A stretch of 64,000 bases of DNA from Symbiobacterium sp. Lineage in GTDB: Bacteria > Bacillota > Sulfobacillia > UBA995 > UBA9673. Shown piece after piece: positions 36,914-43,301 of this stretch. Position numbers and translations under genes: made by a program. The notes beneath the pieces were generated by a model. It saw only the letters and a program-made list of their open reading frames with translations, was not told where the DNA came from and ran no database searches. Position 1 is the first letter of the stretch; each line of letters starts with the position of its first letter. The DNA is taken from positions 32,157-96,156 of the forward strand of contig DYFB01000015.1 of assembly GCA_020725405.1 (NCBI GenBank), written 5' to 3'.

Positions 36914-39085
36914 ATGACCCCTTCGCAGTTCACCGGCACGACCCAGGAAGACCGGGAGGATAGCCGCGGCCCCTCCTGCTCCGCAAGGCCCGGGTGGCGT
37001 CTTGTCGAGACGGTCTGCCCCTACTGCGGAGCAGGCTGCCGTCTCCGCCTCCGGGTCAGGGGCACCCGCCTGAGCGGGGTGGAGGGCGGGGACGGGCCTC
37101 CCAACCACGGTTGGCTCTGCCTGAAGGGCCGGCTCGGTTGGGACTTCGCGCACCACCCTGACCGTCTGACAGTGCCGCTCGTCCGGAAGGGCGGGCTTCT
37201 GACCGAGACGTCCTGGGCTGAAGCCCTCGACCTCGTAGCCGCCCGGCTCAGCGAGCTGGTTAGGGTCTCCGGCGCGGGCGCCGTCGCCGGTCTTGCTTCC
37301 GGCAAGTGCACGAACGAGGAGAATTTCGTCTTTCAGAAACTGATGCGGGCCGGCCTCGGCACGAACAACATCGACCAGTGCGGACGGCTGTGTCATGCCG
37401 CCTCCGTGGCCGGGCTGACCGCCGCTTTCGGGGCCGGGGCCATGACGAACTCTATCGACGAGCTTGCGTCGGCCGACCTCATCTTCATCATCGGTGCGAA
37501 CCCGACCGTCGCCCATCCGCTCATCGCCGCCCGGATAGAGGAAGCGTGCTCCCGCGGGGCGAGGCTCATCTGCGCCGACCCGAGGTCCATCGAGATCGCC
37601 CGCCTGGCCGATCTTCGCCTCCAACACCTCCCCGGTACGGACGCCGCCCTCCTGAACGCGATGATGCACGTCATCCTCGAGGAGGGCCTGGCTGATGAGC
37701 GCTTCATCGCCGGCCGCACCGAGAACTTCGAGGCCTTCCAGGCCGTTGTCCGAAGGTACCCGCCCGAGCTGGCCGAGGTTGTCAGCGGAGTCCCCGCGGC
37801 AAAGATCCGGGAGGCGGCGGTCCTCTACGCGCAGGCCCCGAGGTCGTCCATCGTCTACTCCTCAGGCCTCACCCAGCACACCACCGGTCTCGCCAACGTC
37901 CTCTCAGTGGCCAACCTGGCCATGCTCACCGGCAACGTGGGCCGCGAGTCGACCGGCGTGAACCCGCTCCTCGGCCAGGTCAACGCCCAGGGGGCCTGCG
38001 ATATGGGGGCCCTTCCGGATGTGTTCCCCGGTTACCAGCCCGTTTGTGTTCCGGCGAGCCGGGAGCGGTACGAAGCCGCCTCGGGTTGCCAGCTCCCGGG
38101 CCAGCCGGGCTTGACGATGACTGAGATTCTCGCGGCGGCCGCCCGCGGTGAGGTCAAGGGGCTCTTCGTCCTGGGTGCGAACCCCGCCCTGTCCGCGCCT
38201 GACCTCAAGCACACGACTCACGCCCTTCGACGACTCGAGTTCCTCGTCGTTCAGGATATCTTCCTTACCGAGACGGCCGAACTGGCCCACGTCGTCCTAC
38301 CCGGTGCCTCCTTCGTCGAGAAGGACGGCACGGTCACCAGCACCGAGCGCCGTGTTCAGCGCATCCGGCGGGCCGTTCCACCGGCCGGGTCGGCCCGGTC
38401 CGACCTCGATATCCTCCTCGACCTTGCCGACCGGCTCGGCCTCGGGCCGGGGCCGGGCGGCCCCGACGAGGTCATGAACGAGATCGCCCGGATGGTCCCC
38501 GACTACGGAGGCCTGTCCTACCGGCGGCTCGATACTTCTCCGGCCGGGATCCAGTGGCCGTGCCCCACGCCGGACCACCCCGGCACGCGCTACCTTCACC
38601 GGTACGGGTTCAGCGGGGGTCGAGCCCCATTCTCACCAGTAGACTACCAGGGGCCTGCGGAGCATCCCGACGAGGACTACCCGCTCATCCTGACCACCGG
38701 ATGCGTCCTCGAGCACTCCCAGACGGGGACCATGAGCCGCCGTTCAACCGGTCTCGGCGGTCTCCTCCAGGGTGCGGGCGTCGAGCTCAACCCGCTCCTG
38801 GCCGCCGAAATGGGCGTGTCCGACGGTGACCCGGTCCGAGTGGTGTCCCGCCGCGGAGCTGTCGTCGCTCGGGCGATCCTCAGCCTCAGCGTCGGACGGG
38901 AGATGGTCTTCCTCCCGTATCATTTCCGGGAGGCCTCGGCCAACCTGCTGACGAACCCGGCCTTCGACCCGGGGGCTAAGACGCCGGAACTCAAGGTGGC
39001 TGCGGTCCGCATCGAGCGCCTGGACGCGGCGACGATCTCGGCTCTGGCCGCGGCCGGAGCCCACGAGAAGGCGCCGGCGGGATGA
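36914..39085 (+). CDS. fdhA: Formate dehydrogenase catalytic (alpha) subunit, molybdopterin/tungstopterin, cysteine type (not selenocysteine)
   Basis: The N-terminal 4Fe-4S motif is VCPYCGAGC. The MopB domain has [12 protein letters not shown]...[20 protein letters not shown], with Cys at the position that is Sec in FdhF. A molybdopterin-binding C-terminus follows. Start is ATG 36914. Confidence 0.85.
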   Translation: [723 protein letters not shown]

Positions 39086-39221
39086 TGTTGAAGTTACCGC
39101 TGGTCACTGGCCTTCTCTGTCTTACCGCTGCCGCGCGCCGGAAAGCGCAAAGGTGTATAAAGGTGTATGATTGAGGTCCCAGGCGGGACGAAACCATCGT
39201 GGAGAGGGAGCCGAGCCAGGG

Positions 39222-42200: not shown

Positions 42201-43301
42201 AACGTCGGGAAGCCCTCGTCAGGGGTCAACCCCCTCCGCGGTCAGAACAACGTCCAGGGAGCCTGCGACATGGGGGCTCTCCCGAACGTATATCCCGGCT
42301 ACCAGAGGGTGGACAACCCCGACGTCAGGCGGAAGTTCGAAGAGGCCTGGGGCTGTTCTCTCTCCCCCACGCCGGGGCTCACTCTGACCGAGATGTTCGG
42401 GGCGGCCCACGAGGGACGGGTCAAGGCGCTCTACATCATCGGCGAGAACCCGCTCCTCAGCGAACCCGACGGCCGGCACGTGCGAGAGGCTCTGGAGGCG
42501 GTCGAGTTCCTGGTCGTGCAGGATATCTTCCTCACCGAGACGGCCGAGCTGGCCGACGTGGTCCTCCCGGCTGCCAGCTTCGCCGAGAAGGACGGTACCT
42601 TCACCAACACCGAGCGCCGCGTCCAGCGCGTGCGTAAGGCCGTCGAGCCTGTGGGCCAGGCCAGACCGGACACCTGGATAGTCGCCGAGCTTGCCGGAAG
42701 GATGGGAGCCCCTGGCTTCCGGTCCACGGACCCGGCCGACGTGATGGCCGAGATAGCCTCGGTCACGCCGATTTACGCGGGGATAACCTACGAGCGCCTC
42801 GAGGCCGGTGGACTCGTCTGGCCCTGCCCTTCGCCCGACCACCCCGGCACGCCGATCCTGCACACCGAGAGGTTCCTGACCCCGAGCGGCAAGGGTCAGT
42901 TCGTGCCCCTTGAGTTCCGGCCGCCGGTCGAGACGCCCGACGACGACTACCCGTTGGTCCTGACGACCGAGCGCAGTCTCTACCACTACCACACGGGGAC
43001 GATGACGAGGCGGGTGGCCGGGCTGAACATCCTCAGGCCGCACGAGCTCGTGGAGATGAACCCGAAGGATGCGCTGAAACTCGGCGTCTCCGACGGCGAG
43101 ATGGTGAGGGTCGTCTCGCGCCGGGGCTCCGTGACGGCGAGGGCCAGGCTTACCGAGCAGTCTCCGCCGGGAGTGCTCTCGATGACCTTCCACTTCGCCG
43201 AGAGCCCGACCAACGTGGTCACGAGCCCGGCTCTCGACCCGGTGGCGAAGATACCCGAACTCAAGGTAGCCGCGGTCCGAGTGGAGCGGCTCAGCGGGTA
43301 G
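39222..43301 (+). CDS. Fused NAD(P)H-dependent formate dehydrogenase, 1360 aa: 2Fe-2S ferredoxin domain, then GltD-like FAD/NAD(P) oxidoreductase with Fe-S clusters, then 2x[4Fe-4S], then cysteine-type FdhA catalytic domain
   Basis: The N-terminus [10 protein letters not shown]...[17 protein letters not shown] is a NuoG-type 2Fe-2S domain. [12 protein letters not shown] plus [47 protein letters not shown] and [14 protein letters not shown] are GltD-like. [12 protein letters not shown] and [12 protein letters not shown] are two 4Fe-4S sites. [11 protein letters not shown]...[12 protein letters not shown]...[13 protein letters not shown] is the MopB catalytic domain. Confidence 0.85.
   Translation: [1359 protein letters not shown]

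Follow-up and report, generated by a model that had tools for sequence, protein, structure and literature searches.

This locus raises the question of whether two genes coding for FdhA-type proteins, which lie head to tail in the 64-kb stretch of DNA analyzed here (hereafter the window; from an uncultured member of the Bacillota), jointly constitute a formate dehydrogenase (FDH) system, and whether the second of them indeed places the whole electron path from a pyridine nucleotide to formate/CO2 in one polypeptide. The first-pass annotation described a tandem duplication comprising a stand-alone α-subunit (ORF1) and a β-α fusion (ORF2), both of the Cys type, with the former possibly borrowing the β module of the latter. 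The head-to-tail arrangement and the 136-bp gap were recovered as described, and neither reading frame contains an in-frame stop between its ATG and its end (36914 and 39085 in ORF1; 39222 and 43301 in ORF2, for which the start annotated in a sister assembly is the second ATG, giving 1356 aa).

Domain organization of ORF2

39222..43301, + strand: ORF2, single-chain FDH of 1359 aa with an inserted GltD/NfnL-like NAD(P)H-FAD module
39228..39452, + strand: N-terminal [2Fe-2S] domain (Pfam Fer2_4, residues 3-77), aligning with the N-terminus of NuoG-type α-subunits
39516..40730, + strand: GltD/NfnL-like module (residues 99-503), aligning with the separate β-subunits of split loci
40926..41246, + strand: NuoG-like Fe-S region, consisting of a cluster motif and, after it, a ferredoxin domain of the 2x[4Fe-4S] type (residues 611-675)
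41277..43271, + strand: FDH catalytic domain (FS0 motif, Molybdopterin, Molydop_binding)

Pfam and NCBIfam profiles detect every domain that had been named in ORF2, in the order 2Fe-2S, GltD/NfnL-like FAD/NAD(P)H module, Cys cluster, 2x[4Fe-4S] (Fer4_Nqo3/Fer4_7, residues 611-675) and complete FDH catalytic domain, with junctions at ~40.7 kb and ~41.3 kb as anticipated. The flavoprotein module (Fer4_20 and Pyr_redox_2, residues 99-490) displays, within Fer4_20, the Cys motifs of two [4Fe-4S] clusters, and it has Lys169, together with GSGPAG at the FAD site and GGGNTA...LYRRSR at the NAD(P)H site. Its match to NfnL (5jca_L, E 1e-97) and to TIGR01316/01318 upholds the earlier assignment as GltD-like rather than NuoF/HndC-like. 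The GGGNTA and LYRRSR motifs are common to StnC, the experimentally established NADPH/FAD subunit of its complex (PMC7483475, PMC10482914), and the profile PRK12814 matches ORF2 end to end over residues 1-635.

The catalytic domain (Molybdop_Fe4S4 with the FS0 motif, 686-736; Molybdopterin, 741-1159; Molydop_binding, 1245-1350) is of the Cys type, having a Cys codon and no TGA, and retains Cys813-His814 (41658-41663) and Arg1006 (42237-42239), the latter aligning with the catalytic FdhF Arg333 and FdsA Arg587. None of the 142 near-invariant columns (conserved in >=97%) deviates in ORF2, and it scores 876 bits against TIGR01591, as compared to 748 bits for ORF1 (cut-off 666). The best matches among solved structures are StnC/NfnA-type chains for residues 1-~1020 (9bov_A, 8oh5_C, 9n5u_A) and genuine FDHs for the catalytic part (7qv7_S, 9t1s_L, 6tg9_A, 1aa6_A). 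The sequence data thus directly show the order of the domains, the intactness of the motifs for cofactors and catalysis, and the recurrence of the architecture (see below). The α-subunits of split loci align to ORF2 residues 1-~100 and ~570-1356, and the GltD core of their β-subunits to residues 101-576; these alignments indicate that the GltD core sits inside a NuoG/FdsA-type α chain. Hence, of the proposed β-α fusion the single chain stands, whereas the end-to-end joining of β to α gives way to an insertion with the StnC/NfnA topology.

Provenance and degeneration of ORF1

36914..39085, + strand: ORF1, stand-alone FdhA-like protein of 723 aa, with an N-terminus shorter than that of its nearest homologs and a degenerate active site
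37016..37129, + strand: proximal [4Fe-4S] (FS0) motif CPYC-GAGC...LCLKG, four Cys and Lys all kept
37379..37405, + strand: metal-ligand motif CGRLCHAAS, Cys160-His161 kept, the codon being Cys rather than TGA
37970..37972, + strand: Leu353, in place of the catalytic Arg (Arg333 in E. coli FdhF, Arg587 in R. capsulatus FdsA)
38690..38728, + strand: motif with Cys597 and Gln603, from the alignment of 225 homologs

ORF1 is preceded by an AAGGAG ribosome-binding site 11 nt 5' of its ATG and comprises Molybdop_Fe4S4, Molybdopterin and Molydop_binding domains. It shares 54% identity over 680 aa with the catalytic domain of ORF2; its nearest homologs are NuoG-type FdhA proteins of ~900-1015 aa (62-64% identity for those of 960-1015 aa), which for the closest three (P0122-P0124) are encoded in NuoF-FdhA-NuoE-FdhD operons. 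Its origin as a tandem duplicate of the ORF2 catalytic domain, as claimed at first, was rejected, with 64% identity to P0122 as against 54.5% to ORF2; these values indicate that the two are not recent tandem paralogs and that ORF1 stems from a different FdhA lineage. Comparison with these relatives further indicates that ORF1 has lost their Fe-S N-terminus, and a search 5' of ORF1 for an N-terminal Fe-S remnant found none.

The metal-ligand motif confirms the Cys-type assignment of ORF1, and the FS0 motif and most cofactor-binding motifs are also kept; however, the catalytic Arg, present in 223/240 homologs by motif scan and in 224/225 aligned homologs, is replaced by a Leu that, among the aligned sequences, is seen elsewhere only in P0059. 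Additionally, Cys597 stands in place of an Arg invariant in 225/225 homologs and Gln603 in place of a near-invariant His, amounting in all to changes at 13/142 near-invariant positions, where the remaining sequences have a median of 1. Residual or altered catalysis may nevertheless persist.

The tandem pair also occurs in two further loci (L086 and L088), such that only one other species possesses it, and the clade of ORF1 consists of two clusters only, among 5.8 billion. The upstream gene in these loci (P0125) has a Gly in place of the metal-ligand Cys and deviates at 23 near-invariant positions, of which four are shared with ORF1, with the same residue at just one. Between species, dN/dS is 0.30 for ORF1 (at dS 0.99) and 0.15 for ORF2; between strains it is 0.28 for ORF1 (P = 0.012 versus neutrality, based on just 16 substitutions) and 0.13 for ORF2. 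With dN/dS of ~0.3, ORF1 is therefore under purifying selection, as is its ortholog in the other species. Given this selection together with the loss of catalytic residues, we interpret ORF1 as probably a maintained paralog that has lost formate oxidation.

Comparison with known systems

Over residues 1-~680, ORF2 shows strong sequence matches to, and an identical chain topology with, StnC/NfnA (with NsoC; PDB 8OH5_C, 9N5U_A, 9BOV_A), which forms the large subunit in NfnABC/Stn, an electron-bifurcating transhydrogenase of the Bfu type: in both, a [2Fe-2S] domain precedes an inserted GltD/NfnL FAD-NADPH module, which bears a conserved Lys and two [4Fe-4S] clusters, and NuoG-like clusters and an FdhF-like fold come next. 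The StnC/NfnA chains differ in being shorter (963-1178 aa), in having neither the Arg nor the Cys-His motif at the loci surveyed, and in being encoded directly after NuoE/NuoF-like genes, whereas ORF2 has no such neighbors and a complete, fully conserved FDH domain. StnC/NfnA chains have no formate activity (PMC7483475, PMC10482914).

The same modules as in ORF2, a GltD-like NADPH flavoprotein and a NuoG-type FdhA, constitute the two-subunit NADP-FDH of Moorella thermoacetica and Geobacter SfrAB. Both of these are made up of a NuoG-type α-subunit and a GltD-like β-subunit. SfrB has itself been compared with StnC (PMC7483475). As expected from the earlier annotation, split α plus GltD-like β forms exist elsewhere, in six loci (L022, L065, L073, L075, L079, L082) that align piecewise to ORF2; in this type a second polypeptide, extended at its own N-terminus, provides the GltD module, whereas ORF2 has only the GltD core, inside the α chain. 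With respect to the FdsABG-type NAD+-FDH (Rhodobacter capsulatus, PDB 6TG9), two stretches of ORF2 (residues 4-104 and 601-1356) can be aligned, with FdsA 25-125 and 163-933, respectively; no NuoF/NuoE-type diaphorase is encoded in the window, and the GltD module would take that role in ORF2.

ORF1, whose nearest relatives come from the NuoF-FdhA-NuoE operons (with FdhD), lacks the Fe-S N-terminus and the Arg587 equivalent of FdsA. It has the same three-domain layout and a similar length (723 aa) as the FdhF-type stand-alone α-subunits (E. coli FdhF, 1AA6; HDCR FdhF, 7QV7; F420-dependent FdhA, 9T1S), with which it aligns end to end (E 1e-158 to 1e-195); it differs from them in lacking the catalytic Arg and in having reached this layout by truncation of a long α-subunit. 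No gene for a HycB-, FdhB- or HydN-type partner adjoins it.

Function of the two genes

Jointly, the evidence makes it reasonably probable that ORF2 is a self-contained FDH/CO2 reductase and ORF1 a maintained paralog no longer oxidizing formate. ORF2 would most likely be a cytoplasmic, Cys-type Mo- or W-bis-pyranopterin enzyme, in which the flavoprotein module, lodged between the N-terminal [2Fe-2S] and the following Fe-S domains of the α chain, would relay electrons within the polypeptide from NADP(H) via FAD to its two [4Fe-4S] clusters, and onward via the NuoG-like [4Fe-4S] clusters and FS0 to the Mo/W center, the predicted site of formate/CO2 interconversion. The nucleotide specificity, metal, reaction direction and operation without further subunits are here predicted by homology. 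The window encodes no FdhD, Moco-biosynthesis or Mo/W-transport genes, and the maturation genes must therefore lie elsewhere in the genome; FdhD adjoins the fused gene in L001, L002, L087 and L088, with Moco genes and a Moco riboswitch besides in L002.

That the 1359-aa frame is an artefact joining separate β and α genes is effectively refuted: the source assembly is a metagenome-assembled genome and nothing else was found in its favor, whereas the same continuous ORF occurs in two further independent same-species assemblies and one partial contig, as well as in the isolate genomes of two cultured species, Aeromonas sobria and Vibrio tubiashii. The fusion is shared by more than 100 homologous clusters from many phyla (~1,340-1,400 aa, same Pfam set), counted among the best 120 matches of the homolog search, with the Arg kept in 113/120 and Cys-His in 116/120 of these matches; it is hence neither an artefact nor rare. 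The two further assemblies, together with these clusters, exclude a hidden stop or frameshift. ORF2 is an ordinary member of this known architecture, which is common in sequence databases and for whose intact members our literature search found no biochemistry, and the degenerate upstream paralog is a modest lineage-specific twist. Less easily dismissed, though still unlikely, is that ORF2 serves as large subunit in an electron-bifurcating complex of the Bfu type (HydBC/NuoEF-like), linking formate/CO2 to NADPH, NAD(H) and ferredoxin like an NfnABC/Stn with an active FDH domain. Its N-terminal topology is that of StnC/NfnA (858 and 805 bits), in which the corresponding region is the docking site of the NuoF/NuoE-like bifurcating module (PMC10482914, PMC12018979), and the N-terminal [2Fe-2S] domain is kept; partner genes may lie elsewhere in this genome. 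In the Halanaerobiales locus L006 an intact fused homolog directly follows NuoE/NuoF-like genes, and therefore some members of the architecture may act in such complexes. However, the 64-kb window contains no NuoE/F-like gene, and none occurs 7-10 kb to either side of the fused gene in L001, L002, L005, L008, L047, L086, L087 and L088; in a survey that also took in the window and L085, nine of the ten loci with an intact fused gene lack such a gene within 7-10 kb. By contrast, genes of the Stn/Nfn type, in which the Fdh domain is dead, almost always follow NuoE-NuoF directly (~25 loci).

As for ORF1, a working Cys-type α-subunit exchanging electrons via the flavin/Fe-S module of ORF2 would accord with its above-cut-off TIGR01591 score, intact FS0 motif, Lys and Cys-His, good ribosome-binding site, purifying selection and adjacency to ORF2 in two species. 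We consider it very unlikely, in view of the replacement of both Arg residues and degeneration at other near-invariant positions; moreover, the absence of the metal-ligand Cys in the sister-species ortholog counts against a shared catalytic function, and the ferredoxin domain of ORF2 is already covalently linked to its own catalytic domain. Rather improbable, too, is a functionless, decaying remnant (incipient pseudogene) of a rearranged NuoF-FdhA-NuoE-FdhD operon: the ~230-aa N-terminal Fe-S region, all operon partners and catalytic residues are gone, the non-synonymous rate is ~2x that of ORF2, and the clade is tiny; yet the ORF is intact in two species (723 and 907 codons) at dS ~1, its strain-level dN/dS is in the range of neighboring housekeeping genes, and the canonical AAGGAG is kept. 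For the favored maintained paralog, we propose descent from the α-subunit of a NuoF-FdhA-NuoE-FdhD-type enzyme, with loss, in this species, of the catalytic Arg and of the entire Fe-S region at the N-terminus, and loss of the metal-ligand Cys instead in the one other species that has the pair; it might play a structural, accessory or altered role beside the fused enzyme.

The spacer between the two genes has the following features:

39086..39221, + strand: intergenic spacer of 136 bp
39099-39111, + strand: weak hairpin
39150-39158 and 39160-39168, + strand: AAGGTGTAT x2 direct repeat

The repeat is present as noted in the first-pass annotation, at 39150-39168 rather than 39170-39195. Its conservation extends only to a 99%-identical sister strain and not to L086, L001 or L002. 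RNA structure in the spacer is not significant (z = +0.79), and no evidence points to a function for the repeat. The spacer also contains the ribosome-binding site of ORF2, GGAGAGGGAG.

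Architecture of the fused chain

Two long ORFs, ORF1 and ORF2, lie on the same strand, as the first-pass annotation had accurately described, in a window of ~69% G+C and amid flanking genes unrelated to the pair:

36914 to 39085, + strand: ORF1, FdhA-like protein, 723 aa, starting at an ATG with AAGGAG 11 nt upstream
39222 to 43301, + strand: ORF2, single-chain formate dehydrogenase (FDH)-like protein, 1359 aa from its ATG
43291 to 46032, - strand: AsnB-CofE-like fusion, 913 aa, convergent with ORF2 and overlapping its 3' end by 11 nt
49849 to 52180, - strand: aldehyde:ferredoxin oxidoreductase (AFOR_N + AFOR_C, tungstopterin enzyme family) and a small poly-[4Fe-4S] ferredoxin

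Upstream lie Ldh/Mdh and a polysaccharide deacetylase-LysM gene in divergent orientation; on the far side of the AsnB-CofE-like fusion come GluRS and an MFS transporter, and MutS/L, MiaA/B, HflX, LexA, and SpoIIP are encoded elsewhere in the window. The window derives from a 'Bacillota bacterium' MAG. A sister assembly (GCA_040754035.1), located through P0244, a member of the ORF1 cluster, shows synteny with it at 99.2% nucleotide identity and has both genes (MEW6031425 and MEW6031424), with ORF2 annotated from the next ATG (1356 aa). Both genes lack an in-frame stop and therefore neither uses selenocysteine, in keeping with their earlier description as Cys-type.

The 136 bp spacer between ORF1 and ORF2 does contain the previously noted direct repeat of AAGGTGTAT, at 39150-39168 rather than at 39170-39195. 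These two exact copies, 10 bp apart, are the only ones in the window and form an AT-rich island within the 69% G+C genome. We found no sigma-70 consensus at the repeat, no significant RNA structure in its region (z = +0.79), no conservation in L086, L001, or L002 (homologous loci from other genomes, including the next species), and no riboswitch or other known RNA in an Rfam scan of the window. These results lend no support to a regulatory meaning for the repeat, which is probably unimportant.

Domains of ORF2 (Pfam, residues)
Fer2_4: 3-77
Fer4_20: 99-177
Pyr_redox_2: 194-490
Fer4_Nqo3 / Fer4_7: 611-675
Molybdop_Fe4S4: 686-736
Molybdopterin: 741-1159
Molydop_binding: 1245-1350

The order of Pfam and NCBIfam matches largely bears out the domain content first proposed for ORF2, including the GltD similarity of its N-terminal part. 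The GltD/NfnB(L)-like module spans residues 99-503, with Fer4_20 (two [4Fe-4S] clusters; E 3.6e-20) and Pyr_redox_2 (E 2.3e-34), matches TIGR01316 at 408 bits and 5jca_L at E 1e-97, and has both dinucleotide-binding motifs (GSGPAG and GGGNTA...YRRSR); PRK12814 ('putative NADPH-dependent glutamate synthase small subunit', NCBIfam) matches residues 1-635 end-to-end. The supposed joining of a beta and an alpha subunit end to end did not survive closer alignment. The N-terminal 270 residues of an ordinary NuoG-type FdhA align to ORF2 as two blocks flanking the GltD module, and at loci with separate subunits the alpha subunit aligns to residues 1-~100 and ~570-1356, and the GltD core of the beta subunit to residues 101-576. 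These alignments place the GltD core as an insertion within the alpha chain.

By sequence, the FDH domain of ORF2 is fully intact. With TIGR01591 (Fdh-alpha; curated cut-off 666 bits) it scores 876 bits over residues 689-1354, and Molybdop_Fe4S4, Molybdopterin, and Molydop_binding are all present. Cys813-His814 corresponds to Sec140-His141 of FdhF, Arg1006 aligns with Arg333 of FdhF and Arg587 of FdsA, and ORF2 deviates at none of the 142 near-invariant alignment columns (≥97% conserved among 225 homologs). The ORF2 motifs for one [2Fe-2S] and six [4Fe-4S] clusters, for FAD, for a nucleotide site, and for the Mo/W active site are all intact. Residues 1-~1020 have as their best solved-structure matches the large subunits of the Bfu-type NfnABC/Stn transhydrogenases (9bov_A, 858 bits; 8oh5_C, 805 bits; 9n5u_A), and the catalytic part matches genuine FDHs, namely HDCR FdhF (7qv7), F420-dependent FDH (9t1s), and W-FDH (7vw6/7e5z), as well as R. 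capsulatus FdsA (6tg9) and E. coli FdhF (1aa6). These matches to solved structures are decisive for the predicted fold at this locus.

Distribution of the fusion and its kinship with the Stn/Nfn transhydrogenases

Searched against 5.8 billion protein clusters, ORF2 gave, among the best 120 hits, over 100 clusters of ~1,340-1,400 aa with the Pfam set of ORF2, all bearing the bare name 'formate dehydrogenase subunit alpha' and derived from Chloroflexota/Dehalococcoidia, Anaerolineae, Thermodesulfovibrionales, Fibrobacteria, Bacillota, Deltaproteobacteria, and one Thermoplasmata archaeon. The catalytic Arg is kept in 113/120 of these best hits and the Cys-His in 116/120. An assembly artefact is rejected, as ORF2 is a single ORF in independent assemblies of the species and the homologous clusters show the same continuous chain. 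This recurrence in clusters and genomes establishes that the fusion is real and, at the sequence level, ordinary. When one genome per species was scanned, Aeromonas sobria, Vibrio tubiashii, and MAGs of Halanaerobiales and Eubacteriales also proved to have the intact fused gene, amid several other wirings of the same components.

Gene arrangements (one genome per species)
Intact fused gene alone: L005, L008, L047
Intact fused gene after NuoE-NuoF: L006
NuoE-NuoF and fused chain with dead Fdh domain (Stn/Nfn): about 25 loci
Split GltD-type beta and NuoG-type alpha: L022, L065, L073, L075, L079, L082
NuoE, NuoF-GltD fusion, and alpha: L011, L035, L041, L080
Classic NuoE-NuoF-alpha: many loci

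Split and fused forms both occur in other genomes, and the fusion is no rarity but a known, widespread architecture with a published topology. A further wiring variant pairs NuoE with a NuoF-GltD fusion (1026-1091 aa; L011, L035, L041, L080), directly upstream of a NuoG-type FdhA. An in-frame TGA occupies the position of ORF2 Cys813 in L082 (~9531-9533, CARV-TGA-HAP) and L016 (~6668-6670, CARL-TGA-HAP); therefore, selenocysteine and cysteine versions coexist among the relatives.

The topology of ORF2, comprising a [2Fe-2S] domain, an inserted GltD module, and NuoG-like clusters, is that of StnC/NfnA, the large subunit of the Bfu-type transhydrogenases, for which the same insertion of GltD in a NuoG-like chain has been described, with the GltD part binding FAD and NADPH, electrons passing down the [4Fe-4S] chain, and an inactive, partly dispensable FdhF-like domain (PMC7483475, PMC10482914, PMC12018979). 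Whereas this C-terminal domain of StnC/NfnA is degenerate and cofactor-less, that of ORF2 is complete and fully conserved; the chains at Stn/Nfn-type loci are 1100-1266 aa long and lack the Arg and Cys-His motifs. Moreover, StnC/NfnA are encoded with NuoE-/NuoF-like genes (StnA/B, NfnC/B), but tblastn detected none for ORF2 in the 64-kb window. In the two-subunit NADP-dependent FDHs of the Moorella/SfrAB type, the GltD-like beta and NuoG-type alpha are separate, in contrast to the single ORF2 of independent assemblies. Evolutionarily, ORF2-type proteins look like catalytically competent counterparts of StnC/NfnA.

In close relatives of ORF2 (69-80% identity; L001, L002, L087, L088), FdhD directly adjoins the fused gene, and no NuoE/F-like gene occurs within 8-10 kb of it. 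At L002, the neighbors of the fused gene also include genes for Moco biosynthesis, an ABC transporter, and a Moco riboswitch (Rfam). The riboswitch (Mo/W cofactor; 7143-7277, - strand) precedes the ABC transporter operon beside this fused FDH, which is 69% identical to ORF2; the locus also carries a complete 16S rRNA gene (18435-19944, - strand). Thiolase genes occur a few genes from FdhD at L001, L003, L004, L087, and L088, with a 3-hydroxyacyl-CoA dehydrogenase also in L001 and L088. As both genes recur in relatives near fused-FDH as well as NuoF-FdhA-NuoE loci, this suggests that the two types occupy related genomic neighborhoods.

The upstream FdhA-like gene

ORF1, first described as a stand-alone alpha subunit, is indeed present as such, and proves to be a small, unusual pseudo-FDH companion, a degenerate and truncated paralog of separate origin. 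It scores 748 bits against TIGR01591 and retains the ligands of the proximal [4Fe-4S] cluster FS0 (Cys35, Cys38, Cys42, and Cys69, plus Lys71) and the metal-ligand Cys160-His161. The position of the catalytic Arg (FdhF Arg333), described as orienting formate in the active site (PMC13653126), is occupied by Leu353; Arg is found here in solved FDHs, in 224/225 sequences of the alignment and, by motif scan, in 223/240 homologs. ORF1 deviates at 13/142 near-invariant columns (median of the other sequences 1, 95th percentile 5; ORF2 0), including Arg597->Cys (Arg in 225/225 homologs), His603->Gln, and Trp390->Ser. By these substitutions the ORF1 active site is judged degenerate; a caution for annotation is that it passes the equivalog cut-off for 'formate dehydrogenase subunit alpha' despite having no catalytic Arg.

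The two alpha domains had been read as tandem paralogs. We reject a tandem duplication, since ORF1 is closer to P0122 (64% identity) and P0124 (63%), two of its nearest relatives, than to the catalytic domain of ORF2 (54.5%), and it falls outside the fused clade in a neighbor-joining distance tree. P0123 (1015 aa) and P0124 (960 aa) are alpha subunits with a NuoG-like Fe-S N-terminus, encoded in NuoF-FdhA-NuoE-FdhD operons. This N-terminus is wholly missing from ORF1, with no remnant detectable upstream by tblastn. By the same method, NuoE/F, FdhD, MoeA, MobB, MoaA/C, Mo/W-binding protein, and Mo/W transport genes are absent from the entire 64-kb window.

The tandem arrangement recurs in a more distant species (L086 and L088, from JGI metagenomes), where P0125, a 907-aa FdhA-like protein, is encoded directly upstream of a fused FDH 80% identical to ORF2, with FdhD next after the fused gene in L088. 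P0125 keeps every N-terminal Fe-S ligand and the Arg; Gly replaces its metal-ligand Cys (RLGH), and its GSGAMTNS motif is scrambled. It deviates at 23/143 near-invariant columns, sharing four positions with ORF1 and the same residue at only one. As ORF1 and P0125 have lost the catalytic site by different routes, a catalytic function common to both is unlikely. The two are 60.7% identical, as against 80% for their fused partners. Between species, dN/dS is 0.30 for ORF1 (dS 0.99) and 0.15 for ORF2 (dS 0.93); between strains, it is 0.28 (nine synonymous and seven non-synonymous changes; P = 0.012 against neutrality) and 0.13, respectively, with 0.12-0.33 for housekeeping neighbors. A profile search with ORF1 and P0125 recovered no further members of a degenerate FdhA clade. 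From these comparisons, we conclude that the upstream gene is a lineage-restricted paralog under relaxed constraint that is still under selection.

Proposed electron path and role of the companion

We propose, by homology to StnC, that NADPH would donate electrons to the FAD of the ORF2 GltD module, from which they would pass via the two GltD clusters, the NuoG-like clusters, and FS0 to the Mo/W center, where, by homology to FdsA/FdhF, CO2 and formate would be interconverted, all within one polypeptide. The nucleotide-site motif (GGGNTA...LYRRSR) and Lys169 of ORF2 are common to the NADPH-using StnC (PMC7483475), and the nucleotide preference is a prediction; for the predicted Mo/W bis-PGD and formate/CO2 turnover, the genomic context comes from relatives only (FdhD, Moco genes, and the Moco riboswitch). 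The chief alternative has ORF2 docking onto a HydBC-like bifurcating module whose genes lie elsewhere, a reading suggested by the gene order at L006, where NuoE-NuoF precede an intact fused gene; the ORF2-type architecture also recurs without partner genes. In this Halanaerobiales MAG (4609-11089), the fused GltD-FdhA (1365 aa, with Arg and Cys present) comes right after the NuoE-/NuoF-like genes, which makes L006 a candidate for a bifurcating FDH of the Bfu type that has an extra NADPH site.

For ORF1, an accessory or structural role without catalysis seems to us more likely than either residual activity as an FDH or simple decay. A fuller picture drawn by analogy, which we hold to be rather unlikely as a whole, would make ORF1 and P0125 pseudoenzyme subunits that assemble with the single-chain FDH, perhaps as scaffold or oligomerization partners like the dead FdhF-like domain of StnC (tetramer formation), in an early stage of the passage from FDH domain to NuoG/StnC scaffold, with the ORF2-type proteins as self-sufficient Cys-type NADPH:CO2 reductases. 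These FdhA-like proteins have shed different catalytic residues while staying under selection, which is relevant to how a Mo/W-pterin fold becomes a scaffold like NuoG or StnC.

Members of this large family occur in culturable Aeromonas and Vibrio, and in the open-access literature we found no characterized intact GltD-FdhA fusion or biochemical study of an intact member, an absence that is not proof. A one-polypeptide, selenium-free FDH with a built-in flavin module that binds a nucleotide, probably NADPH, would be convenient to try in heterologous expression, with CO2 reduction and formate-driven NADPH regeneration as envisaged uses. No gene in the window assigns the FDH to a particular C1 pathway. 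The aldehyde:ferredoxin oxidoreductase (49849-51708) is a hint of tungsten use by the organism, a point relevant to the metal of the FDH. In the convergent AsnB-CofE-like ORF, glutamine amidotransferase and asparagine synthase domains are joined to an F420-0:gamma-glutamyl ligase domain at the C-terminus; this ORF is kept in the sister assembly (887 aa).
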